From NCBI GenBank assembly GCA_965372445.1, contig CBDVCJ010000001.1, positions 1 through 47,651 of the forward strand: a DNA stretch of 47,651 bases. Direction: 5' to 3'. This document shows, piece by piece, positions 14,021 through 47,223 of this stretch. Below the pieces are notes generated by a model, which worked only from the letters and a program-made list of their open reading frames with translations, was not told the origin of the DNA and made no database searches. Numbering within the stretch: the first letter of the stretch is position 1; every line of letters starts with the position of its first letter. The DNA is from an uncultured Thermoplasmata archaeon. Lineage in GTDB: Archaea > Thermoplasmatota > Penumbrarchaeia > JAEHCK01 > CBDVCJ01. The position numbers and the translations under genes were made by a program.

Positions 14021-14482
14021 GGTCCTGAGTCCGTAGTCCTGCGTCCGATAAGTTGTGAGTGTTCGTGAGACTGTTTTTATATTGCAAAAGAGCGTAGGAT
14101 TGTTTCAAGAATACCATAATGCGTCGGATATGATGTCTTTTAATAGATGCGTGGGAGCTCCATTTGATTGCTGAGGGCGTTGGATTGCTCAAATAAACAA
14201 TAATCGTGTGAATCAAACGAAAAAACACTCGAACGCATTAAATTAGTCAGTAGGCAATCCAACAAATCAATTAAATGGCATTCAGGTCCCACGCCAATGA
14301 AAATAACTTGACGCTCCTACGCAATTTGGCAAACAGTTAACAATCCAACGCATATAGGTGAAATTTTATCTATCCCACATAATGACAATGTTACCACAAA
14401 CTCACAACTATATGGGCTCCCTGGACTCCCAAGACTCTTTCGCCTATCGCCCTTCGCCTTTCTCGTGGCAAACTCCAATCTT
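14021..14482 (+). repeat. Family-B phased inverted-array element, copy B1
   Basis: The core is bounded by AGTTGTGAGT (14051-14060) and ACTCACAACT (14400-14409). Forward cores start at 14065, 14094, 14123, 14151 and 14179. Reverse cores start at 14229, 14258, 14287, 14315, 14344 and 14373. Outer layers are a GAGTCC-type array (14021-14049 vs 14412-14437), a TTTCGCC array (14437-14465) and GCAAACTCCAATCTT (14468-14482). Confidence 0.9.
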
Positions 14483-14491
14483 GAAAAAAGA

Positions 14492-14953
14492 TCAGATGAT
14501 ATGTCCAACGATATCGGTCTGTTCTCGGTCACAATAAAAACAATTTAATCTGATCGGATCTTTTGAGGTAACAACACATTTACTCCCTATAGGTTCATTC
14601 TTGTTCGAAACGCAGTTCGGGTTCTCGCATTTCACTATACCCTCAATTATAGCCGGGAGCTCTACCTTATGCTTTTTCTCGACATTGAAATTACGGATAA
14701 TATTGAAAGTGGCATTTGGGGCAATTAACGCGATCTTATCAAGTTCATGAGGGTCCAATTCCCGATCCTCGATCTTGACAATATCTTTTTTATCCATTTT
14801 AGCTTTGCCGGAATCGACGTACATTGCCACACTAACGATCGACTCCTGTTTGCCGGTTATCCCAAGTATCTTCAACACTTTCAGTGCCATTCCTTTTTCG
14901 ATATGGTCTATTACGGTACCATTTTTTATGGGTGTAACTTTGAATTCTTTCAT
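14492..14953 (-). CDS. pyrI: Aspartate carbamoyltransferase regulatory subunit
   Basis: 153 aa. N-terminus is KVTPIKNGTVIDHI. The zinc domain is CENPNC...CFYC. Confidence 0.93.
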   Translation of the reverse strand: MKEFKVTPIKNGTVIDHIEKGMALKVLKILGITGKQESIVSVAMYVDSGKAKMDKKDIVKIEDRELDPHELDKIALIAPNATFNIIRNFNVEKKHKVELPAIIEGIVKCENPNCVSNKNEPIGSKCVVTSKDPIRLNCFYCDREQTDIVGHII

Positions 14954-16120: not shown

Positions 16121-16287
16121 TTGTGGACTCGAATCGGGAATCTGGAATCCAATAATTTACCCTCACATCACAAATGCCGAAGGGATTTGGGATGTTCATG
16201 CGGAGAACAAAGTTCGACGCATGCATCCTCCATCCTTTAACAATAAATCCCAAACATATATAACTTCAAATCTCAATTTGCATTTCG

Positions 16288-18046: not shown

Positions 18047-18543
18047 CCAATAGAAAGGCGAGAGACGATTATTTTAGTCATGGAGTCCGATAAGTTGTGA
18101 GTGTTAGTGGGACTGCTATTGTATTGCTAAATAGCGTAGGATTTTTTTAGGCATGCTATTATGCGTGGGATTGCCATTATAACGATAAAGGGCGTGGGAT
18201 TGTCATTATAACTATAAAGGGTGTTGGTTGCTTAATAAACATTAACCGTTGAAATCATACGAAAAAGCGCCTTAACGCATCAATAAAATGGCATTCAGGT
18301 CCCACGCCTAATGGCAATTCAATCCAAATCCTACGCCTTTTAACATGCAGGTAGTAATCCTACGCATTGTAGCGATGGGTATCTATCCTACATAATGATA
18401 AAAATGCCACAAGTACACAACTCACAACTATTAAGACTCGCGACTCACCACTCTTGACTCACGACCAATTAAACCAAACCATTTAACCTCATTTCGCCTA
18501 TCGCCTATCGCCTATTGCCTTTTCAATAGCAAACTCCAATCTT
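18047..18543 (+). repeat. Family-B phased inverted-array element, copy B2
   Basis: The core is bounded by AGTTGTGAGT (18093-18102) and ACTCACAACT (18420-18429). Forward cores start at 18107, 18136, 18165, 18194 and 18223. Reverse cores start at 18271, 18300, 18329, 18358 and 18386. Outer layers are AAAGGCGAGAGACGA (about 18055-18069) vs (TCGCCTA)x3 (18494-18514), then GCAAACTCCAATCTT (18529-18543). Confidence 0.9.
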
Positions 18544-18555
18544 AATAATAGTTAT

Positions 18556-18564
18556 CTTTATATC
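18556..18564 (+). promoter_or_regulatory. TATA-like box upstream of trmY
   Basis: The centre of CTTTATATC is ~30 nt before ATG 18590, which fits a very short or absent leader. Inference. Confidence 0.3.
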
Positions 18565-18589
18565 TCAATTAAGCATTAAAGCGTTTTAT

Positions 18590-19261: not shown

Positions 19262-19434
19262 GGCAAGATAGTTATTATAGTGGCAAGATGGGGCGGTGGT
19301 CTGTGGAAATACCAAGACAATTGAAGATAGAAGCTAGAAAATGGAAGATAGAGATTAATTGGCTCTAGCTTCCATCTTCTTGCTTCTAATATCTTCCCAC
19401 ATACCACATCCCAAACTTGCCACTAAAAATTGCC
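19262..19434. repeat. Nested palindrome with GAAGATRG core and family-G outer arms
   Basis: The left arm AGTGGCAAGATGGGGCGGTGGTCTGTGG (19279-19306) faces CCCACATACCACATCCCAAACTTGCCACT (about 19396-19424). The inner GAAGATAG/CTAGCTTCC motifs are mirrored around 19355-19362. Confidence 0.8.
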
Positions 19435-23354: not shown

Positions 23355-24347
23355 ATGATGACGATACCCGATCTATACGAATATGTATACTATTTAACAC
23401 GCCAGATCCCAACGGGAATGGTAAGTTCCTACGGCGCGATCGCCAGTGCCCTGGGTGATATCCGTGCCAGCAGGGGCGTGGGCGAGGCCGAGCACCTTAA
23501 CCCCACAGCGGTGATCATGCCCTGTCACCGGGTGGTCTATTCTGACGGTGGGCTGGGTGGGTATGGCGGTACCGGTGGCCAGGGGCGTAAGATCGAGCTG
23601 TTAGCTACGGAAGGTGTTGATGTTAAAGACGGTAAGATCGTGGATTTTGAGAATGTACTTTTCCGCGATTTCAAAACCGAGTATCCGTTGAAACAGCTAC
23701 GAGACCAGCAGCTAAAATATAGAAAAAAGATAGTAACAAAAAACAGTTTAGAAGCACAAGCCCTCGTCAAAAAAGGCGGTTATATCGCAGGTATCGATGT
23801 CGCCTATTCGGGGTGGGACGGTTACGGTGCCTGTGCGGTTATGGGATACCCGGATCTTGAGTTAGAAAAGGTGGTGACTGCAAAAACCAGAATTAAACTT
23901 CCTTATGTCCCGACCTATCTGGGTTTCCGTGAATTTCCTGTAATAGAAAAGCTCGTGAACCAAACCAAAAAATTGAAGTTGGAACCGTTGGTTTTCATGC
24001 TCGACGGAAACGGTATACTCCATCCTTATGGCATGGGGCTGGCGTCGCATATGGGTGCTGCGCTGGATATTACTACGGTTGGTGCTGCCAAGAGACCTTT
24101 GTGTGGTAAGTTGGAGAACTATCCAGAAAAAGAGGGCGAGGCGAGTAAGATACTTTTTGAAGGGCAACATATAGGGTATGGTCTGAGATCGTCGCTCAAG
24201 GCCAAGAACTTGATCTATGTGTCGGCAGGGCATAATATCTCGAATAAGACCGCTTTAGATATCGTTACGAAGTGTTGCAGGACACGCATTCCGGAGCCGA
24301 TAAGGGAAGCGCACAAGGCGGCGAGTCGTTTCAAGGCCCAGGAATAA
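23355..24347 (+). CDS. nfi: Fusion of an O6-alkylguanine-DNA alkyltransferase domain and endonuclease V
   Basis: The N-terminal ~90 aa carry the active-site motif PCHRVV. The remainder has EndoV motifs GIDVAY, GFREFP, DGNGILHPYGMGLASHMG and VGAAK. Confidence 0.85.
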   Translation: MMTIPDLYEYVYYLTRQIPTGMVSSYGAIASALGDIRASRGVGEAEHLNPTAVIMPCHRVVYSDGGLGGYGGTGGQGRKIELLATEGVDVKDGKIVDFENVLFRDFKTEYPLKQLRDQQLKYRKKIVTKNSLEAQALVKKGGYIAGIDVAYSGWDGYGACAVMGYPDLELEKVVTAKTRIKLPYVPTYLGFREFPVIEKLVNQTKKLKLEPLVFMLDGNGILHPYGMGLASHMGAALDITTVGAAKRPLCGKLENYPEKEGEASKILFEGQHIGYGLRSSLKAKNLIYVSAGHNISNKTALDIVTKCCRTRIPEPIREAHKAASRFKAQE

Positions 24348-24393: not shown

Positions 24394-24556
24394 GCACCCC
24401 CATATATAAACCGCAGAGTACGCAGAGGACGCTGAATTAAGGTGAGGTCTAGGGACGCTGCCTAGAATTTATTGGGTTATTTTTACTAATAATTCCTACT
24501 TCAATATATATTCAGCGTTCTCAGCGACCTCAGCGGTTTAATAATGGGGGGCGGGG
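24394..24556. repeat. Nested palindrome, family D (CGCWGAG 9-mer arrays) with C5/G6 outer layer
   Basis: AAACCGCAGAGTACGCAGAGGACGCTGAAT (24408-24437) faces ATTCAGCGTTCTCAGCGACCTCAGCGGTTT (24510-24539). The outer layer is GCACCCCCATATAT vs ATAATGGGGGGCGGGG. Confidence 0.85.
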
Positions 24557-24647
24557 ATCAAAACTAAAAACCAAAAACTAATAAACGCAAATCACGAATC
24601 AGGGAAAAAAAATCAACGCACTTTGTCCCCTTAGCGGTAAAAAACCT

Positions 24648-31058: not shown

Positions 31059-31287
31059 TGAAACAACGCTCCTATTATTTTTACACTATTCACTAAAACC
31101 ATTAAATTTTATATATATTAATAATTTGGGGGATTTTATGCATTTTTAATCTTGTTATATATCACTTATTTATGAATAGCCAATTATAAAATGTTCTTTC
31201 GCATAATATCATACTTAAAATCATTATATATTCTTTTCGGAACTTTGTATCTATAATCTTTCAATTGTTGGTATATAAGGTATGGAT

Positions 31288-31779
31288 ATCGGTTGCGGTG
31301 TCGAAGCTCGTATCGTTAGGCGGTTTGGAAGCTCGGCAACAATAGTTTTTAGTTTACAGTCTGGGGTTTGCAGTTTCACTTATTAAAAATAAAAGCCTCA
31401 AGAGGTTGGAAGTTACTATTAGATATTGATATACAGGTTAAAGTTAGGAAGCCGGTATGGAAATTAGGTTATGAAGTTGGTATTGAAGTTTGAAATTTGA
31501 TATTAGGTAGAAGCCCAACTTCTTAACCTCTAGACCACACAGGCTCTTTCAGGTTTCAATGATTTATTTCAGAGCCTTTATGGTTTCGTCCTATCGGACT
31601 TCAACCACCCTGGCCTCATAACCTTAACCCAACATCCAACATCGTAAATAATTCCTATTCAATTAAGGGGGTACTACAAACTAAAAACAACAAACTGCAA
31701 ACTTATAATTATAGTATAAATTTTCGAAACCGCCTTGACCAGCTTCGAGACGCGCATCGAAACCGCAACGGTAACCGAT
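31288..31779. repeat. Largest nested palindrome (~490 bp, at least 3 layers)
   Basis: Layer 1 is 31288-31336 vs 31721-31779 (shared blocks ATCGGTT, GCGGT.TCGA, AGCT, AGGCGGTTT). Layer 2 is AGTTTGY heptamer arrays, 31343-31376 vs 31671-31704. Layer 3 is GGTTA/GAAGTT arrays, about 31404-31500 vs about 31515-31645. Confidence 0.85.
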
Positions 31780-31877
31780 AAAGATAATGATTTTCTTAAA
31801 AAATTGAAATAAAAACTTTAAATTGATATTATTGTATTCAGATGATATTGAGCTTAGATAAACAGGGATAGTTATTC

Positions 31878-38684: not shown

Positions 38685-38863
38685 CCAAATAAACTAGTTT
38701 TTTTAGCTCCCATGTTTAAAATTAACATTAAGTAAAGGCGATTTTATTAATAATATTTACTATACCACTTTAAAGTTATTGGTAATATATAAAAGTTAGG
38801 GACTTATGTGATGGCATAAACCTGGATTTAATGTACTAATGTCTGTGGTTAGTAAGTCTAAAA

Positions 38864-39183
38864 AGTTGTGAGTGTCCGTGGGATTGCTATTTTTACGCCA
38901 GAGGATGTGGGATTGCTTTAAGGTTGCCATTTGATGTGGGATTACCATTTAATAACCTGATGGTGTAGGATTGCCATTATATTGATAAAAGACATTGGAC
39001 TGTTTAATTAAACAATAACTTCGTGAATCAAACGAAAAACACTCCAACGCATCAACAAAATGGCAATCAGTTCCCACACCCAATGGCTAAACTTGACAAT
39101 CCTACACAATTTAGCAAATAGTTAGCAATCCTACACCAATGGACGAAATTTTAACAATCCCACTTGGAGCTATTATAACAACT
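38864..39183 (+). repeat. Family-B phased inverted-array element, copy B3
   Basis: The left terminus is AGTTGTGAGT (38864-38873). Forward cores start at 38878, 38907, 38936, 38965 and 38994. Reverse cores start at 39043, 39072, 39100, 39129 and 39158. The right terminus is degenerate (AACAACT, 39177-39183) and abuts the arcS stop at 39185. Confidence 0.9.
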
Positions 39184-39184
39184 G

Positions 39185-41053
39185 TCACGTATGGTGTCGG
39201 ACCTTAACCGCCACCCCGCGTTTACTTCTTAATATCTCAGGTGTGCTCATTACCGCTTTGCCCACACCCCGAAGCTCGTCTTTATGTAGTATCACAACCT
39301 CGTCCTCAATTCTGATATCCGGATCAGCATCGGTAATACCCACCGCCATCACGCTGCCTTTTGGCTTGAAATCGTCAATTTCCACCCAAAAAGAATGGCT
39401 GGCCGCCAAAACCTTTGCGCCTTCCAGTGTAAGTGAAATCATACCGCGCTCGGCGATCAGCATCCCCAGCTGTTCTTTGCCGCAAAATATTTTCAGATAA
39501 GGATATTTTCCTTTGATCGTGATCTCACGGTCTTTAAAAAACCTTTCACCTATCTCGCCAAATTGAAACTTCAATATATTCACCATATATTCCTTCAACC
39601 GTTCCTGCTGTGGAATATGCTCATATTGTTGGGCAACTTCAGTTAGGTTTTTTGCCAAATTCATAAGCGCGCTCTGGGACGTTGGGTGTGAACCGTTGCA
39701 AGTTTTTATAATATCAATATCCAGAGTTTGGAATAGCTGCTCCACGATCTCTAATAACTCACCGTTGAGATGCACAATGATATTATCATATCGGTTATTT
39801 TCAATAAACCACTTCAGATCCTGGTCGATCATAGCCTTCTCCGAATGGTCCCAGGCTCCTGAGACCGGGATATCGTATTGTTGGGCCGGATAAAATAATT
39901 CTAACTCACGCGGTACCACCCCCAACGGAGAGGTCAGTATTACCTCATGAACCACACTTGGATTTGCAGAACTTATTAATGCCTGCCTGAACAATTTATG
40001 CGATCTCGAGCTGGAATAGGGTTTACGGGCAGAACAAGGAAGCAACAACAATATCTTTGACGCAGAGGGTTTATTATATCGTGCTTTCAATCGATCTCTA
40101 AACCTTTTCACCTCTGGTCGCCCGATCGCTCCCGACGATACGGCAATGAGTCTCGAACGGCGCATTATAGGCAAATAGAGCTCTTGAAAGTCATAATACT
40201 CCAGATCACCGATCTTCAAAACCGTGGTGAGCCACGGCTCGGATATTGCCCGCTGCTCAACGAGCTCACGCAGCGAGCCGTTGTTAATTGCAGTTCTGAT
40301 AGTCCCTAATTCGGATAAGGCAGAATAATAATTGTGATGAAGTATATGTTCAAACCCGAATTTTTCCGGATCACCGGTTTCCGCAGCGTTACATGCCGGG
40401 CAATAGCAAAATCTTCCACCCTCATAAATAGCATCTTTCGAATATTTACCATTATTATTTAGTAAAACACCATCTCGTGCATTCAAAATTAATCGGGTCG
40501 TATCGATGAGGTCAATTCCACAATAAATTAATAATGCCAATTGGTTTGGCACCCCAATTGCTGGTGCATAAAGTGGTTTGTGATAACCAATGGCCTTTTT
40601 TACCTTGATGACGGCCTCCACAAAACCACGCGGGTTGCGAAGCAATTCGATCGCATTACCCAAAACATATAGTTCCGCATTCGGGTTGATCTGGTCGGCT
40701 AAATCTTCGGTCGAGTAGTTATGGATCATATAAACATCAGTTTCTTCTGAATATTCCTCTTGGTCATCAAACAATTCATTACAGCTTAGGGGATAGCCCA
40801 AATCTGCCGGTATGGTCAATTCCGGGTTGCCGATCGTGTCCTCCTCCAAATCGGTGCTGAACTTACTGCCCGAGTCAATAATGTATGGCTTATTTGTTTG
40901 GAGGCTATGGTCTGCAATAAAAATATCGGCCTCTGAGAATGGCTTGAACCGTTCTGAGGCTATAAAAAATATATTCGGAGTCGTGATCGTTGTATTTCTA
41001 AGGCTCCAATTAGCAACTCTACCAAGCCCGTCACGGTTAGTTATCTCGAACAC
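39185..41053 (-). CDS. arcS: Archaeosine synthase (ArcTGT paralog, TgtA2 type) with C-terminal PUA domain
   Basis: 622 aa. The N-terminus MFEITNRDGLGRV is TGT-like and the Zn motif CYCPAC...H is present. LLPCSARKPYSSSRSH fits the PC-x3-KPY-x2-S-x2-H motif reported for ArcS. The C-terminus is PUA-like. Confidence 0.75.
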   Translation of the reverse strand: MFEITNRDGLGRVANWSLRNTTITTPNIFFIASERFKPFSEADIFIADHSLQTNKPYIIDSGSKFSTDLEEDTIGNPELTIPADLGYPLSCNELFDDQEEYSEETDVYMIHNYSTEDLADQINPNAELYVLGNAIELLRNPRGFVEAVIKVKKAIGYHKPLYAPAIGVPNQLALLIYCGIDLIDTTRLILNARDGVLLNNNGKYSKDAIYEGGRFCYCPACNAAETGDPEKFGFEHILHHNYYSALSELGTIRTAINNGSLRELVEQRAISEPWLTTVLKIGDLEYYDFQELYLPIMRRSRLIAVSSGAIGRPEVKRFRDRLKARYNKPSASKILLLLPCSARKPYSSSRSHKLFRQALISSANPSVVHEVILTSPLGVVPRELELFYPAQQYDIPVSGAWDHSEKAMIDQDLKWFIENNRYDNIIVHLNGELLEIVEQLFQTLDIDIIKTCNGSHPTSQSALMNLAKNLTEVAQQYEHIPQQERLKEYMVNILKFQFGEIGERFFKDREITIKGKYPYLKIFCGKEQLGMLIAERGMISLTLEGAKVLAASHSFWVEIDDFKPKGSVMAVGITDADPDIRIEDEVVILHKDELRGVGKAVMSTPEILRSKRGVAVKVRHHT

Positions 41054-41218
41054 AATGAATCACGAGTGGCAAATGGTAATCATTGTTTTTATAATTTCTT
41101 TTTAAAATCCAATGTCGGGGTGCGAATGGCGAATACTATTGAAGAATATTTCCAATATTCAAATACTACCAATACTACCAATGAAATCCCAATGGCAAAA
41201 TTCCAAGACCCAAGCTTT

Positions 41219-41274
41219 AAAAATCCTGAAAGGATTTTTAATGCGAGGTAACTTGGCGTAGCAAGTTACCGCAG
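41219..41274 (-). repeat. Family-A double-hairpin module, copy A3
   Basis: The + strand reads AAAAATCCT-gaa-AGGATTTTT, then AATGCGAG, then GTAACTT-ggcgtagc-AAGTTAC, then CGCAG. Confidence 0.85.
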
Positions 41275-41278
41275 CCGT

Positions 41279-41334
41279 AAAAAAGCCGAAGGGTTTTTTA
41301 GGGCGAGGCAACTTGACGAAGTAAGTTGCCGCAG
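41279..41334 (-). repeat. Family-A double-hairpin module, copy A4
   Basis: The + strand reads AAAAAAGCC-gaa-GGGTTTTTT, then AGGGCGAG, then GCAACTT-gacgaagt-AAGTTGC, then CGCAG. Its hairpin 1 is identical to that of A5. Confidence 0.85.
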
Positions 41335-41494
41335 ATGCAAGTTCCAAACAAATCCCAAAATTCAAGTACCGAAATTCCAAACGACATTAAAATTTGGATT
41401 TTGGTATTTGGTTCTTGGTACTTGCATAATTTGGTACTATTGGAAATATTAATAAAACAAATAAATCAACGCGTTGCCCCACAAACCGTCACAT

Positions 41495-41731
41495 TTAGCC
41501 TTTAGGTCGTGTGTAGATGACTTTATAGCGGTCTGGGTACTCTTTAAAACAAGTATCACATCCCTCATCCAGTTCTTCCGGTATAACAGGTTCGAGCCTC
41601 ACTTCCAGCCCAAGTGATTCATACATCTCTTTAGCCTCAGACAGTCTTGGCTCGTCGTAGATGAACCTGCGGGTCCAACCCTCCTTTTGCAATTGTCCAT
41701 CGCGAGTTACATCTTGGTTATCTTCTGTCAT
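41495..41731 (-). CDS. Small conserved-looking hypothetical protein (78 aa)
   Basis: The ORF has balanced composition (GWTRRFIYDEPRLSEAKEMYESLGLEVRLEPV...C..C...YKVIYTR). No family recognised. Confidence 0.55.
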   Translation of the reverse strand: MTEDNQDVTRDGQLQKEGWTRRFIYDEPRLSEAKEMYESLGLEVRLEPVIPEELDEGCDTCFKEYPDRYKVIYTRPKG

Positions 41732-41752
41732 ATTAACGCCCCGTTTCAGATA

Positions 41753-41967
41753 GGTTTCGAACTGCGGTCTCGGTTTCGAAGCTCGTAGGGTTAGCTTGAC
41801 GATTTTTAATATATTCTATTAAAGTCAAGCGAGGCCTGAGGGCACGAATGTGCCCGTGTCGATGCTCGTCGGTCGGTTTCGGCCGGTTACGAATTTCGCA
41901 ACCCAAACGCAACCGATTAACGAACTTCGAAACGAGCATCGTAACCGAAACCCTAAACGAGAAACCG
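41753..41967. repeat. Composite palindromic spacer sharing modules with 25978-26525
   Basis: CGTAGGGTTAGCTTGACGA (41784-41802) is identical to 26029-26047. GTCAAGC (41824-41830) pairs with GCTTGAC. GGGCAC-gaat-GTGCCC is at 41840-41855. GATGCTCGT pairs with ACGAGCATC, and GGTTACGA with TCGTAACC. Confidence 0.8.
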
Positions 41968-41977
41968 TTAACTATTC

Positions 41978-42844
41978 TTATGGTATTAGTCTGGCTACAT
42001 TCATATTAAGCTCGAGCCCCAACGCATTCGCCACCGGCGGACATTTGGTCCGCAATAAATACGCGATCGGCCGGTAATCGGTCTCTGAAAACGCTTCGAA
42101 ATTGCCCATGCCTTTGGATATTATCAGATCGACGGACTCGATCTTAGCCTGCAACTCAGGCGTGATCTTCTCGAAATCGACCCCGACAGCATAAGCATTG
42201 GTCGTTAGTACTTCGTCCACTTCAGCTTCTAATCCAAGCTTTTCAACATCTTCCATGGTAGCATCGTTAAGGATTGGCGCGCCTTTGACAATTAGTGTTA
42301 TATACACACCTAGCTTCTTAATCTCTCTGAGCAACAATTTATCGAAAATAATCTCGCCGCAGTTATCCGTGAAAAACAGGATTTTCGCATCCTTTTGGAG
42401 ATATTTTCTGATTTTATCAACATCATCAATATGTAATCCTTCCATACATAATTCATCGAATTTATGATCTAATGCTTCAGGGTTCTCAGCACTGCCTTCG
42501 ATCCCGAAATCGAGCACATTGCCCGCAATTGCACATACCACTGCCGCATGAAGTTTATCCTCGGCTTGTGCTAGGAATTGCTCGGCTTTAGGTAATAATT
42601 TCAGTGCAACGGTGTTGCACCTGGCTTTGATGTCGGTGTAAGGGTCGTTGGTGCCTAGGACTCCAAGCACTCTTTTATGGAGTTTAGTCGATACCTCGAT
42701 CGAGCATTTATCTTCTGAATAATCCTCGGCCAAAACATTACAGGCCTCTCTAATTACGGCTTGGGCTTTGGCATCATCCACGAGCGACGCCTCAAATACC
42801 GCACGCCTTAGCAAGCATGGTACACAATGTGATGTGATCTTCAT
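41978..42844 (-). CDS. DUF89 (ARMT1-like) damage-control phosphatase
   Basis: The N-terminus is MKITSHCVPCLLRR and the metal-site motifs DNCGEIIFD and SKGMGNFE are present. I prefer ATG 42844. The track start 42994 extends into the repeat region. Confidence 0.8.
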   Translation of the reverse strand: MKITSHCVPCLLRRAVFEASLVDDAKAQAVIREACNVLAEDYSEDKCSIEVSTKLHKRVLGVLGTNDPYTDIKARCNTVALKLLPKAEQFLAQAEDKLHAAVVCAIAGNVLDFGIEGSAENPEALDHKFDELCMEGLHIDDVDKIRKYLQKDAKILFFTDNCGEIIFDKLLLREIKKLGVYITLIVKGAPILNDATMEDVEKLGLEAEVDEVLTTNAYAVGVDFEKITPELQAKIESVDLIISKGMGNFEAFSETDYRPIAYLLRTKCPPVANALGLELNMNVARLIP

Positions 42845-42920
42845 TTTGGAACCTCGGAATAATATAAACCAGTGGAAGTGTAATATATCAATATATTTAA
42901 AATATTTTAATTCGTTAAAT

Positions 42921-43223
42921 AGTGGAAAGGGTAGGTTTGGGATGTGGCTTATTAAATTCCAAGAACCAAGAGACAAATTCCAAACAAATCCCAAGGTTCA
43001 AATACCAAGTTCCAAAAAAATCCAAATGTGAAGGCCTAAAGATTAATTAATTGGAATTTTGGAATTGGTACTTGCGGCAACTTACTTCGTCAAGTTGCCT
43101 CGCATTGAAAATCCTTTCAGGATTTCCAAAGTTGGAGCTTGTTTGGCTCTTGGAGGTTTGCTTCTTGGAGTTTTGCATTGCCCACATACCTCATACCACA
43201 CACCACCGCCCCATCTTACCACT
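42921..43223. repeat. ~300-bp nested palindrome enclosing module A5
   Basis: The outer arms are AGTGGAAAGGGTAGGTTTGGGATGTGG (42921-42947) vs CCCACATACC...CCACACACCACCGCCCCATCTTACCACT (43181-43223). The last 28 nt match the reverse complement of 19279-19306 at 26/28. Inner CCAAG/TTCCAAA arrays face TTGGA arrays. Confidence 0.8.
43073..43131 (+). repeat. Family-A double-hairpin module, copy A5
   Basis: GGCAACTT-acttcgtc-AAGTTGCC (43076-43099), then TCGC, then GAAAATCCT-ttc-AGGATTTCC (43107-43127), then AAAG. Confidence 0.85.
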
Positions 43224-43264
43224 GAAAATAATTTAACAATAATGGGGCTTTTAATTAATAAAGA

Positions 43265-44812
43265 TCAGATCTCCATATATTTCTTCTCCGGCCATGCCGG
43301 CCATCCAATATAGTACGCCAACTCTCTCAGGAACTCATTTGCATCATAATACGAGATCTCCCATGATTCTTCATGTTGGTGGTTTTCGATTATATCGCGG
43401 GTGGCCTCGAGCCAGACCGGCATATCCATAGGTACTGCGCCGAACAATAATGAAACCAACAGCCCATTCTCAAACCCCAGTGTCTCTCGCACCTTGGGTG
43501 CAGGTATGGGTTGGGGCTTAAGGTTCGCAGCGTGACTGATGACGCCCGTTGTTATGCCCTCACGCCCGCCGATAAAGTTCAACATCCCCGATAATTTTGG
43601 GAACCACTCGTCAGATACAAAATCGCTGAACTCGTCGAAATATTTACTTCCTTCAGGGTAAACCGGTATGCAGTAGATACTGGTGGCTCTGAACTCGTAA
43701 AGCGCCGAGGAAGATCCTCTGAACGTGAACAGTTCCAAGTTCTCCTCATCACTATTTTTATCTTCCTCAAGCTTCTCCAGCTGTATTACCCCGTCGCGCA
43801 TCTCTTTTAAAACCGTATCCACCTGGCCCACATCCTCGATATTCGGGTCGATCCATAGATGCGGCACAACGAACGGTCTTTCCGGCGACAGGCCGGCCAT
43901 AATATCAGGTATATCTATCGGCCCGAGCGGCCAATTGTCCTGCATCCAGCTCTGCTCTTTCGGGCTCGCTACCACATATTTCAAAAACGGATATAGTGCC
44001 TGGGATAACAACTCAATGGGGAATGGGTTAAGCACTTCTTCACGGATCTCTTTGCGTGCAAAGTCTTTCCAGCATTGTGCAAAGTGGTGGTTGCTCAACG
44101 GAAAGATCGCAATTCTGGAATGCTGGAATTCATATGAATGGTCGGTATCTTCGCGTTTAATAGTTTTATTTAACACAAGTCTGCAATCATGAGGTATTCT
44201 AGTGAAATCACGTTCTGAGATCCTGCGCGCGATCTTTAATAGTTTTCCCATGGTCGGCGCAACGGTCCGCGGCCCCTGTAGTGCAAGCGCCGAGCGTCTG
44301 GGCAAAACCGTGAACAGCCAAAAAACCGTTGAGGCAGGTAGAACATATCCAAGATGTTGTAGAACTTCAGGTGTAAGCCCACCACCGGTACCGCCATCCG
44401 CAGTGTGGATAATAACGACAATTGCCGGCTCGATCTCCGAGATGGGTTTGTAAAGGTTATCAGCCAGATTCTGCACCACCTCCTCATTGAGCACCGCTTT
44501 CGCGGCCCTGCCAGGTCTACCCCCCGCACCTCGAGACATGCCCCGGACGGTGCTGGATAACGAGATCTTTTGGGCTTGCGGGATGTTTTCGAAAAAGCCT
44601 TTGGTGGTCGGATCTGCGCTGGTGTCTACTATGAATGTATATGGTGTATCTGTATTTGCCCGAATGGCTTTGGTTAAACAGCTATATCTATCAAGTTCCT
44701 GGTGGTCAACAATCTTTTCCAAGCCTTCAGATAGTATCCGCGAGCCGCCGCCGCCGATACCGACGATGACGATCGATGGTAGCTTCCTGCCGCCTGACTC
44801 ATCATTAGCCAA
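43265..44812 (-). CDS. Divergent FtsZ/tubulin-superfamily GTPase with a unique ~190-aa C-terminal region
   Basis: 515 aa. VGIGGGGS (aa 17-24) is T1-like. GAGGRPGRAAKA (aa 95-106) is T3-like. HTADGGTGGG (aa 136-145) is the T4 signature. IFPLSNHHF (aa 235-243) is T6-like. GPIDIPDIMAG (aa 297-307) is T7-like. The order and spacing parallel the canonical FtsZ in this window. Confidence 0.8.
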   Translation of the reverse strand: MANDESGGRKLPSIVIVGIGGGGSRILSEGLEKIVDHQELDRYSCLTKAIRANTDTPYTFIVDTSADPTTKGFFENIPQAQKISLSSTVRGMSRGAGGRPGRAAKAVLNEEVVQNLADNLYKPISEIEPAIVVIIHTADGGTGGGLTPEVLQHLGYVLPASTVFWLFTVLPRRSALALQGPRTVAPTMGKLLKIARRISERDFTRIPHDCRLVLNKTIKREDTDHSYEFQHSRIAIFPLSNHHFAQCWKDFARKEIREEVLNPFPIELLSQALYPFLKYVVASPKEQSWMQDNWPLGPIDIPDIMAGLSPERPFVVPHLWIDPNIEDVGQVDTVLKEMRDGVIQLEKLEEDKNSDEENLELFTFRGSSSALYEFRATSIYCIPVYPEGSKYFDEFSDFVSDEWFPKLSGMLNFIGGREGITTGVISHAANLKPQPIPAPKVRETLGFENGLLVSLLFGAVPMDMPVWLEATRDIIENHQHEESWEISYYDANEFLRELAYYIGWPAWPEKKYMEI

Positions 44813-44888
44813 TAATCTCCCCCATATGCAGTTCTAAGGAAATCATAATCAGATATATCTAACTTTTGATTGAATAGTTCTTAAAATA

Positions 44889-45022
44889 GGTTACGAAGTT
44901 CGGTTATGGTTAGGAAGCCGGTTTGGAAGTTAGTGTTAAGGTTAGGATTTGTCCTTATTTGATCCAACTTCATAACCCCAAGACCAAACTCGCCTCCTAA
45001 CCTTAACCAAATGTCCAACTTC
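44889..45022. repeat. 134-bp palindrome (family E: GGTTAGGA/GAAGTT arrays)
   Basis: The left arm is 44889-44947 and the right arm 44963-45022. Shared blocks are GAAGTT, GGTTA, GGTTAGGA, GTTTGG and GTTAGGA. GTTAGGAAGCCGGT is also present at 31443-31456. Confidence 0.85.
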
Positions 45023-45033
45023 TGTTGGAATTC

Positions 45034-46839
45034 TTAGTAATTTCTGGGTGGGTTTTGCTGCTGGGGCGGTGGATAGTAAGGTTGCTGTGGCGGTTGCTGT
45101 GGCGACGGATAATAGGGTTGCTGTGGTTGCTGCTGCTGTGGCGGTGGATAGTAGGGTTGTTGTGGCTGTTGCGGTTGCGGCGGGTAATCCTGTGGCGGTG
45201 GTGGCGTCGGCTGGGTTGGCGGTTGCTGTGGTTGCGGCATTCGATCGCCTGGCGCCTGGTATTGCGTACCACCAGGTGCGCCCGGTGGGGGTTGCTGCCA
45301 TTGTCGTTTGCGGCTGCGCTTGCGCGCCCAGATCCCCAAAATACATATCACAATAACAATAATCGCGATCGTTAAAATTAGGAATGCCATATCTAATCCC
45401 GAAGCATCTTCACCATCACTGCTTTTCTTGGACGAGGCTTTGTAATCTTCATAATCCGCTTTGATCGTGTCGCGGGTCACTTCATTAAAGGTCTTCACCT
45501 CACTATATGTCTGGGGCTCCAGTTCATCTTCCTCCTCACCATTAGAAAAGGGGTCTTCAGAGTCCGAGCCCGGAAGCTCGACCGATATGAAATTCCCATT
45601 CTTGAAAGAATACCAATTTTCAGATCTTGCCATCGTATCTATCGCATTGGGTTGGTCCCCGGCCCCAAGATCTTCGGTACCAATAATCGAGGGGTCTTCA
45701 ATATCCATCTCTACATAGGAACCAGGGCTCCAATAATTGTTCAGGGCGTTATCGGAATATTCGTCTTCCCAATACCAATCATATTGCGGTCCGATCTTAT
45801 ATGCAGTTATTTCTGTATTATCGGGTAATATTTTGGTATCTTGCTCGATATTACGGAATGAATATTCGACCCATTCAGGCCCGATCGTCACGGGAAAGTT
45901 CAACCCCTCACCCAAAGTGATATCGCCTTTCTCGGTCTCAGGCGCGCTTTCCGGCATATCGATCATCATATCATATGAAATTGTGCCTGAAAATTCATTC
46001 AAAATGATCGTCATTTGAGAACTGGCGTCCCAAGATTCGTAATCCTTGATCGGAAAATCAAAAATATCCAAAGGCGGGTTATAAATAATATCATAAGACG
46101 CTTTCCAATCGGTTATAGTTTGTTTCAGGGTAAAGTACATCCTCACCTCGTCTGAAGTGCCAGGGTCGGTTGGCTGCTCCTCATTCGGCACCTCCTCGCC
46201 ACCTCTTACATCACCTTCGAAAAGATCTTCAAAGAAATAGCCACTGTAGGTTATATCGTACAGAAAATCCACATCCGAATTCAGCACGAAATCGAAGCTG
46301 CCTTTTGCAATTGCAAGTTCGTCAACAGTGAAATAGATATGACCTGTCAGTGCCAGATCGAACCACATATAACCCTCGATCTTATAATCCATCCGCATAT
46401 CCTCTAACATTTCAGATATATCATCTTCAGATTGACGAGTTCCGTACTGTTCCATCATACTCGCGAAATCCATGCTCATTACAATATCCATCTGGGCAGC
46501 CATCGCAATATATTCTTCATAATATACATCATAACAAATATATTCAGTTTGACCGACCGTGACCTTCGTATTATCATCTTGAACCGTCAATGCACGATAA
46601 TAGCCCATGTTGCCTGAAACCACCATTTTGGATACGTCAAAATATTCGGTTTCCATATCATCGAAAAATCCATCTTGAGTAAGTTCATCCTCGTAGCCCA
46701 TACACCACTGGTCGCCAATCTCCCAGATCGGTACATCGTTCTCTTCTGGTACTACTATTATTCCTTGTACACTTGCACCTGCTAGCATGAAAAATGCTAA
46801 TGCTATACAAATCACATATATTGACCTCATCTTCATCAC
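45034..46839 (-). CDS. Single-pass surface protein with P/Q/Y-rich cytoplasmic tail
   Basis: 601 aa with a signal peptide, an ~480-aa acidic ectodomain with no recognised domain, and a TM helix FLILTIAIIVIVICILGIWA followed by RKRSRKR. The tail has three QQPYYPPPQQ-type repeats. Confidence 0.75.
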   Translation of the reverse strand: MMKMRSIYVICIALAFFMLAGASVQGIIVVPEENDVPIWEIGDQWCMGYEDELTQDGFFDDMETEYFDVSKMVVSGNMGYYRALTVQDDNTKVTVGQTEYICYDVYYEEYIAMAAQMDIVMSMDFASMMEQYGTRQSEDDISEMLEDMRMDYKIEGYMWFDLALTGHIYFTVDELAIAKGSFDFVLNSDVDFLYDITYSGYFFEDLFEGDVRGGEEVPNEEQPTDPGTSDEVRMYFTLKQTITDWKASYDIIYNPPLDIFDFPIKDYESWDASSQMTIILNEFSGTISYDMMIDMPESAPETEKGDITLGEGLNFPVTIGPEWVEYSFRNIEQDTKILPDNTEITAYKIGPQYDWYWEDEYSDNALNNYWSPGSYVEMDIEDPSIIGTEDLGAGDQPNAIDTMARSENWYSFKNGNFISVELPGSDSEDPFSNGEEEDELEPQTYSEVKTFNEVTRDTIKADYEDYKASSKKSSDGEDASGLDMAFLILTIAIIVIVICILGIWARKRSRKRQWQQPPPGAPGGTQYQAPGDRMPQPQQPPTQPTPPPPQDYPPQPQQPQQPYYPPPQQQQPQQPYYPSPQQPPQQPYYPPPQQQNPPRNY

Positions 46840-46907: not shown

Positions 46908-47223
46908 TTCGGGATTCGGGACGCGGGATTCGATAACTTAGAAGTTTGTAGTTTGTGGTTTGTAGTTTGCAGTTTCCCCCCGCCCCCCATTCAACCGCTG
47001 AGTACGCTGAACTCGCTGAAAAACCAATTGTGGGGGTGTAGCGGGTCGGGTGTAGGGTGTATTGAAATGTCCCGACACCCTATACGCTATACCCAACACC
47101 CCCTCAATTTAGCTAATAATTCAGCGTTTTCAGCGTCCTCAGCGGTTAGAACTTTAAAATGAATTAGTTACATGTCCTTTGTGTTAAAAGCCGACTCCCG
47201 AGCCCTGAACACCGATTCCCGAA
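46908..47223. repeat. ~315-bp nested palindrome (families D, AGTTTGY, GGGATTCG)
   Basis: Layer 1 is TTCGGGATTCGGGACGCGGGATTCG (46908-46932) vs CCGACTCCCGAGCCCTGAACACCGATTCCCGAA (47191-47223). (AGTTTGY)x4.7 is at 46943-46975 and CCCCCCGCCCCCC at 46976-46988. The D arms are 46993-47020 vs 47119-47147. The inner GGGGGTGT...ACACCCCC layer is 47030-47105. Confidence 0.85.

Follow-up and report, generated by a model that had tools for sequence, protein, structure and literature searches.

Genomic setting

The window analysed here is a whole contig of 47,651 bp from an uncultured archaeon related to Thermoplasmatota. The nearest named relatives are Thermoplasmata/Thermoplasmatota MAGs, with only 56-66% protein identity, and closer relatives (77-91%) were found only on short metagenomic contigs. 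Ordinary archaeal housekeeping genes are present (CysRS, PEP synthase, FtsZ, riboflavin genes and pyrBI), together with a gene for an archaeosine synthase (TGT + DUF5591 + PUA). An MGMT DNA-binding domain fused to endonuclease V is encoded at 23355-24347 (+); this fusion architecture is known from Thermoplasmatales, and thus fits the taxonomic placement of the host.

A 515-aa protein encoded at 43265-44812 (-) gives a sub-threshold match to the Tubulin/FtsZ GTPase family (31 bits, for a cut-off of 33), and a normal FtsZ is encoded at 8235-9416. The tubulin-like gene, which is kept beside ARMT1 in the related contig L014, adjoins the gene of a 601-aa protein without a Pfam match (45034-46839, -), and repetitive DNA lies within the region of the latter gene, at 45048-45236. 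No tRNA genes were found in the window, and the contig begins too far 3' to reveal any tRNA-Cys upstream of cysS. Relatives have tRNA-Cys (GCA) immediately 5' of cysS (L013, 2458-2530; L017, ~165-345; L018, ~28-215). Inspection by eye suggests that this tRNA is interrupted in L017 and L018 by ~115 nt, probably an intron, for which ARAGORN made no call.

Family A copies and their gene context

Family A comprises five copies of ~60 nt in the window, each of which can be folded into two hairpins (Table 1). The positions given for them in a preliminary description of this DNA are borne out, with slight shifts of the bounds when the copies are taken as 60-nt units. The strict pattern GCGAGGNAANTTN{1,2}CGNAGNNANTTNCC (on the reverse strand) has five matches in the window, which are all five copies, while 0.00 are expected from 100 shuffles of the window. 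Searching the window with a covariance model built from the five copies yielded no sixth full copy and only one solo hairpin, for which membership in Family A is a weak assignment. A4 and A3 form the sole doublet, arranged head-to-tail with a 60-nt period. As the contig begins within A1, this copy has no 5' TGC.

The four independent loci are all intergenic, with ~17% of the window being non-coding (0.17^4 ~1e-3, by simple arithmetic), and the copies are clustered locally, with A1/A2 near cysS and A3-A4/A5 near ARMT1. A1 lies 140 nt upstream of cysS (195-1634, +), and A2, located between convergent genes, begins 34 nt past the cysS stop. Between a conserved 78-aa ORF (41495-41731, -) and the ArcS promoter sits the A4-A3 doublet, which shares the orientation of both genes; A4 is ~160 nt downstream of the ORF, and A3 precedes the ArcS start (41053) by ~160 nt. 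A5 runs antisense to the two genes beside it, the tubulin-like gene (stop 43265) and ARMT1 (288 aa, start ~42844). The earlier statement that all copies sit at gene 3' ends or between convergent genes does not hold, given the location of A1 upstream of cysS and the antisense orientation of A5.

Table 1. Family A copies, hairpin-2 types and enclosing palindromes in the window, with the corresponding sites in related contigs
Feature	Position	Strand	Description	Score
A1	1-56	+	truncated at contig start; hairpin 1 GGTAATTTTC-TGC-GAAAATTACC, then TCGC; hairpin 2 TTGAAAATTCC-GTT-GGAATTTTCAA	65.4 bits (covariance model)
A2	1669-1727	+	hairpin 2 type a (AAAACCCTTCGGCTTTT)	77.3 bits
A3	41214-41273	-	3' member of head-to-tail doublet; hairpin 1 GGTAACTTGC-TAC-GCcAAGTTACC; hairpin 2 type b (AAAAATCCT-TTC-AGGATTTTT)	85.6 bits
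A4	41274-41333	-	5' member of doublet; hairpin 2 type a	81.4 bits
A5	43073-43132	+	hairpin 1 as in A4; hairpin 2 type b, as in A3	86.1 bits
Solo hairpin	16166-16194	-	like hairpin 2 type a (CCCAAATCCCTTCGGCATTTGTG); without hairpin 1	19.2 bits, E 0.007
Hairpin 2 type a			AAAACCC-TTC-GGcTTTT	
Hairpin 2 type b			AAAATCCT-TTC-AGGATTTT	
Hairpin 2 type c			AAAATTCC-GTT-GGAATTTT	
A2 outer inverted repeat, left arm	1647-1664	+	18-bp perfect stem	
A2 outer inverted repeat, right arm	1792-1809	+	partner of 1647-1664	
Tile run flanking A3	41150-41213		CCAA-type; pairs with 41425-41445 in predicted fold	
Tile palindrome beside A4-A3 doublet	41340-41445		CCAAA-type/TTTGG-type	z -8.2
Tile run 5' of A5	42954-43072		CCAA-type tiles, then TTGG-type run; outer palindrome arm	
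Tile run 3' of A5	43133-43175		TTGG-type; partner arm of palindrome enclosing A5	
L014 (ARMT1 91%)			order tubulin-like/ARMT1/78-aa ORF/ArcS as in window; A5 and A3/A4 sites hold other palindromes	
L014 copy			135 nt downstream of ArcS; truncated by contig end	
L019/L020 (cysS 85%, PpsA 89%)			syntenic over 10 kb; no copy; GGTTACG-type tiles at the A2 spacer	
L017 (cysS 80%)			contig begins within copy upstream of tRNA-Cys	
L013 (cysS 77%)			decayed copy ~135 nt upstream of cysS, just past tRNA-Cys	31.9 bits
L015 (ARMT1 81%), L018 (cysS 81%)			no Family A copy	
Replaced spacers in L014	1453-1658, 2526-3198			
Replaced spacers in L020	2341-2654, 10354-10505			
Replaced spacer in L019	1504-1588			

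Hairpin structure and pairing

Hairpin 1 is a 10-bp stem closed by a TNC triloop, GGYAAYTTNC-TNC-GN'(c)AARTTRCC, with an optional bulged C; with its flanks, it spans 31 nt. It is framed by TGC at its 5' foot and by an invariant TCGC directly 3' (GCGA on the other strand). What had been described as the loop of this hairpin is really two further pairs closing the triloop, one of which covaries: the N-N' pair is T-A, G-C or A-T depending on the copy, and hairpin 1 therefore has three covarying pairs. Hairpin 2 is an A-run/T-run palindrome of 11-13 bp, extending from the last C of TCGC to the G of AAAG, and occurs in three types. The T-run earlier thought to follow hairpin 2 in one orientation is its own 3' arm, 3-6 nt long and present in both orientations.

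The two-hairpin fold of each copy has z-scores of -2.3 to -5.8. The stem-1 variants listed in the preliminary description do keep their pairing, and the compensatory change that it noted extends to both hairpins. Among the five window sequences, 94% of cells are paired, with two-sided changes at 6 of the 21 pairs. Among nine sequences, including those of relatives, 91% are paired and two-sided changes reach 10 of 21 pairs, which was attained by 0 of 500 shuffles. When the partners of these nine sequences were slid by 1-3 columns as a control, only 26-53% of cells paired. As the sequences are few and related, these figures demonstrate that pairing is maintained, and not the level, RNA or DNA, at which this occurs.

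The structure offers little to tell one strand from the other. Antisense RNA folds of the copies are as stable as the sense folds or slightly more so, with no G-U pairs marking a strand. An attempt to find the functional RNA strand from the asymmetry of G-U and A-C pairs gave no answer, the sole A-C mismatch occurring in opposite contexts in the two copies that have it, A5 and that of L017. A pairing between the 3' tail CAAAGTTGG and the 5' arm of hairpin 1 is feasible in A5 only and was dropped, as was the slight likeness of hairpin 2 type c (TTCC-GTT-GGAA) to an origin-recognition box, this type occurring in only two copies.

The two hairpins assort independently, as first proposed. A4 and A5 share an identical hairpin 1 over 31 nt, and the hairpin-2 core AAAATCCTTTCAGGATTT is common to A3 and A5; the hairpin 2 accompanying the shared hairpin 1 is of type a in A4 (as in A2) and of type b in A5 (as in A3). 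Sharing of this kind cannot be reconciled with a single tree. The L014 copy has its outer stem in common with A4/A5, its apical part with A3, and a hairpin 2 of type c. The shuffling may reflect exchange at the invariant CCTCGC linker, by homologous recombination or by gene conversion; a crossover within an A4-A3-type doublet, from one unit to the other, would give precisely A5.

Occurrence in related genomes

The A2, A3/A4 and A5 sites are without the element in relatives of the same gene order at 85-91% protein identity. The family nevertheless occurs elsewhere in three relatives (L014, L017 and L013), with only ~8 copies available in all, from ~86 kb of lineage sequence. The copy in L014 differs from A3 in hairpin 1 by one compensated pair only, and hairpin 2 of the L017 copy (AAAATCAC-TTC-GTGATTT) differs from that of A5 by two compensated pairs. 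L013 provides one case of apparent positional retention, its copy lying upstream of cysS at a distance similar to that of A1, which hints at a function or at a hot spot.

Orthologous spacers share only their promoter-proximal 40-60 nt. Despite this turnover, near-identical Family A sequences are found in four genomes, which therefore implies constraint or ongoing copying. No clean pair of empty and filled sites was found among the syntenic relatives; because whole spacers are replaced between relatives, no exact empty site can be defined.

Three of 15 observed contig ends fall within copies (at the start of the window and of L017, and at the end of L014). With Family A covering ~0.5% of the sequence, the chance of this is ~6e-5 by our own binomial estimate, and the breaks are a hint at repetition. 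The L019 and L020 contigs both end in GGTTACG-type tiles, and several contigs of relatives end within tile-palindrome regions.

Beyond these relatives, Family A matched nothing known. Rfam gave no match at gathering score over the window, and none at E<=1 over 41100-43300. In reference genomes (596 Gb, a collection without the host organism), five bacterial pattern matches were obtained, none with a second hairpin, for ~9 expected by chance according to our own estimate. Seven matching loci were found in JGI metagenomes, six of which are single chance-like hairpins. The locus L008 was rejected as a relative: it carries three copies of an 83-nt G+C-rich repeat, which match Family A only where the pattern forces them to. 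This repeat belongs to another, higher-G+C organism and lies upstream of genes (1605-1687, 1727-1809 and 6783-6865); an outer stem ATCCCGCC/GGCGGGAT encloses an GGGAAATT/AATTTCCC hairpin, followed by TCGC. The one pattern match in IMG/VR is at chance level and inside coding-like sequence, and the plasmid and phage collections gave no meaningful match. The literature searched holds no description of such repeats in Thermoplasmatota.

Tile palindromes around the copies

Nearly every long spacer of the window consists of strand-asymmetric tandem tiles of 7-8 nt, arranged in long, nested, imperfect palindromes. The tile types are CCAAA / TTTGG, GGTTA / TAACC, CAGCG / CGCTG, GGAGTCAGG / CCTGACTCC and CGAAAC / GTTTCG. 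In predicted folds, each Family A copy that could be examined appears to lie inside a larger tile palindrome. A2 has an outer inverted repeat, and the doublet, A5 and the L013 copy are predicted within CCAA/TTGG stems; for the doublet, the tiles at 41150-41213 and the palindrome at 41340-41445 would constitute the enclosing outer stems. A 10-nt direct repeat, AGGAGTCAGG (1655-1664 and 1728-1737), brackets A2, although it may be mere tile units; the flanks of the other copies exhibit tile-like similarity only, without direct repeats. Hairpin 2 types b and c share words with the neighbouring CCAAA/TTTGG tiles, whereas hairpin 1 and TCGC are not tile-like.

The tile palindromes are themselves dispersed. 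The one at 24395-24570 resembles that at 46965-47160, and 31425-31660 resembles 44885-45035 save for a 70-nt internal insertion. At 80-91% protein identity, orthologous spacers hold tile palindromes of entirely different sequence, and L018 (270-480), when compared with its close relative L017 (400-510), has extra palindromic layers at the centre of a shared outer palindrome. The nested tile-palindrome system looks like a larger and more unusual feature than Family A itself.

Several other repeats were observed in the window. Nested tile palindromes also occur at 31270-31780, 41750-41960 and 19275-19428, and some are found at two loci with ~70-85% identity and internal insertions, resembling foldback elements with short-tandem-repeat arms. 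A foldback element of 300-480 nt is present in three copies, 67-83% identical (14043-14500, 18085-18566 and 38856-39163); its left arm consists of CGTGGGATTG units with a 29-nt period, its right arm of complementary AATCCYACGC units, and it is bounded by GTCCGATAAGTTGTGAGTG and CACAACTCACAAC. A short dispersed repeat, AGTGGCAAGATGGGGCGGTGGTCTGTGG, lies at 19279-19306 and 43196-43223 (also 19394-19428), with 93% complementarity between loci, and one of its copies is 65 nt from A5.

Comparison with known hairpin repeats

To our knowledge, and from the literature searched, REP-type small hairpin repeats are on record almost exclusively from bacteria and organelles. Family A shares several features with the bacterial REP, BIME and REPIN repeats and their RAYT transposase systems (PMC2817692, PMC3116915, PMC3733652): its hairpins are short imperfect palindromes (20-40 nt), extragenic and repeated (five window copies), with an invariant short tag beside the stem and stems kept by compensatory change, and the family is lineage-specific, with positions varying between relatives. 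However, REP palindromes are marked on one side by a conserved tetranucleotide, GTAG or CGTC (PMC3733652), whereas the Family A tag is TCGC/GCGA, and the Family A unit consists of two different hairpins. Moreover, the A4-A3 doublet is head-to-tail, unlike the inverted units of BIMEs and REPINs, the host is archaeal and the window contains no RAYT. Strict membership of the REP family fails, because there is neither a GTAG/CGTC tag nor inverted pairing of units. A REP/RAYT system further comprises a single-copy RAYT (Y1/HUH) gene flanked by REPs and more than ~100 palindromes per genome, whereas the ~8 copies of Family A come from ~86 kb.

Mitochondrial hairpin elements offer another parallel, namely the RHEs of sponges (PMC2800124) and the DHEs of Allomyces (Paquin et al. 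2000, as cited in PMC2800124). They are small hairpin-folding elements (with two hairpins in DHEs) that fill intergenic regions, and their presence differs between close genomes of identical gene order. They lack terminal inverted repeats and a linked enzyme and, in many cases, target duplications as well. However, they reside in organelle genomes of eukaryotes, and their sequences are unrelated to Family A. In descriptive terms, Family A belongs with the repetitive hairpin-forming or double-hairpin elements, being repeated, intergenic, hairpin-forming and differently placed in close relatives.

Prokaryotic MITEs (PMC10969869, PMC11602168) are likewise small, non-coding, intergenic, structured and dispersed, with presence/absence variation. 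For Family A, such variation at orthologous sites was found at A2, A3/A4 and A5, where whole spacers are replaced. In contrast to MITEs, its ends are not inverted repeats (5' TGCGGYAAY and 3' YYAAAGYT; TGCGG... and ...CAAAGT), and no parent insertion sequence is known for it. As to target-site duplications, none was seen consistently, and A2 alone is bracketed by a direct repeat, AGGAGTCAGG. PATE-like elements derived from IS200/IS605 have end hairpins that resemble each other in sequence and are recognised by a single TnpA; hairpin 1 (GGYAAYTT...) and hairpin 2 (TTGAAAATCC...) of Family A are unrelated in sequence. Finally, hairpin 2 resembles a bidirectional intrinsic terminator of the bacterial type in being an A-run/stem/T-run palindrome downstream of genes, but its stem is AT-rich and the T-run lies inside the stem.

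Origin and possible roles

We favour, at roughly even odds (a probability of about 0.5), the reading of Family A as a small non-coding, non-autonomous, REP/MITE-like dispersed double-hairpin repeat that spreads and recombines within a narrow Thermoplasmatota-related lineage. A mobile element is favoured because the copies are absent at syntenic sites while the family recurs elsewhere with near-unchanged sequence, because contig ends fall within copies, and because the hairpins assort. The other dispersed palindromic families of the genome also make it a setting that favours mobile hairpin elements. Copying would take place on DNA, with insertion into gene-distal intergenic sequence, perhaps preferentially within or near the apex of existing palindromes. 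An enzyme encoded elsewhere may recognise the folded hairpin, most likely hairpin 1 with its invariant TCGC tag, which would explain the preservation of the stem; alternatively, templated repair within the palindrome might restore pairing without selection. Should the element also act on transcripts, by impeding 3' exonucleases or by terminating weakly, this would be a secondary effect. Against mobility count the lack of terminal inverted repeats, the restriction of flanking direct repeats to A2, the lack of a clean pair of empty and filled sites, the small number of copies (~8), and the lack of a transposase or HUH/Y1 gene in the window; none was found among the called genes of the related loci either.

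The preliminary description had offered two options, and its mobile, REP-like hairpin fits the evidence better than its terminator or RNA-stability element. Termination or RNA stabilisation may be the primary role, yet support for this is weak: the T-runs are short and paired, the genes bring oligo-T runs of their own, relatives dispense with the element and A5 is antisense. Archaeal termination normally proceeds via free oligo-T tracts of five or more, with no need for a hairpin. At least five T are present in the hairpin-2 T-run of only two of the five copies, cysS carries its own T6 run directly at the stop codon (T8 in a relative), and no terminator-like site (a G+C-rich stem followed by at least five T) was found in 40900-43400. 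In its fullest form, this reading would make Family A an RNA-level 3'-end module, in which hairpin 2 acts in bidirectional termination or pausing, and hairpin 1 serves as an obstacle to 3'-5' exonucleases or as the binding site of a processing factor. Such a module would suit the co-orientation of the A2, A3/A4, L014 and L013 copies with a known upstream gene (only A5 departing from this), their location within spacers, which is gene-distal and precedes the conserved promoter of the following gene, and the covariation in both stems; hairpin 2, being symmetric, would read alike from either direction, and the site after tRNA-Cys and before cysS is seemingly kept in L013. With the T-runs limited to 3-6 nt within a stem, orthologous genes of close relatives doing without the element, and a functional strand that neither G-U pairs nor relative fold stability distinguish, we nevertheless consider it unlikely. 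The binding-site and sRNA-gene roles are less likely still. Covariation of a two-hairpin structure with several paralogues could also reflect a family of independent small RNA genes, but the upstream flanks are unrelated tiles with no TATA/BRE-like element at a fixed distance (the TATA-like runs tried as promoters lie at inconsistent distances), no Rfam family matches, and copies are gained or lost between close relatives, all of which makes such a family very improbable.

At the DNA level, hairpin 1 might instead be bound by a dimeric protein (DNA-binding, chromatin or topology), as its palindromic operator or as an architectural site. Bacterial BIMEs, for instance, bind IHF and gyrase, and the Family A core is perfectly dyad-symmetric (GGYAAYTT/AARTTRCC), with an invariant flank and a strictly intergenic location. 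This reading is improbable in view of the two-sided changes at three stem positions, which keep the pairing but alter the bases that a protein would read, of the lack of conservation at orthologous positions, and of the variable distance to promoters. Purely local duplication is a real alternative, since the two local clusters could have arisen in this way without transposition: segmental duplication, slippage and gene conversion would act in fast-evolving tile spacers, with pairing kept by templated repair rather than by selection. It would account for the two pairs of copies lying 1.6-1.8 kb apart, one of them involving a tandem doublet, for the ~15 nt of additional tile sequence shared by the A5 and A4 flanks, for the construction of hairpin 2 types b and c from neighbouring tile words, and for the wholesale turnover of spacers between relatives. 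It is nonetheless distinctly unlikely, as the same hairpin 1 recurs at unlinked sites 40 kb apart and at non-orthologous sites of other genomes, and as hairpin 1 with TCGC is not tile-like and is far better conserved than any tile.

Significance

Under the favoured reading as a dispersed mobile repeat, Family A is a new family of a familiar kind of hairpin repeat. The breakage of contigs within its copies would make it a handle on the poor assembly of these genomes, and it might be usable as a strain-tracking marker. A more far-reaching proposal, which we regard as rather unlikely, is that Family A represents the best-conserved part of an archaeal counterpart of REP/RAYT, in which an unlinked enzyme would read the GCGA-tagged hairpin 1 as folded single-stranded DNA and insert palindromic modules into the apices of palindromes. 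If true, such a system would be the source of the nested, onion-like tile palindromes of which most gene-distal intergenic DNA of the lineage consists, and which are replaced between genomes sharing 85-91% protein identity. Any enzyme partner, should there be one, could prove to be a hairpin-specific DNA enzyme of a sort so far undescribed in archaea. A family of hairpin repeats that is conserved in sequence and keeps its structure in an uncultured archaeal lineage would extend the phenomenon beyond bacteria and organelles.
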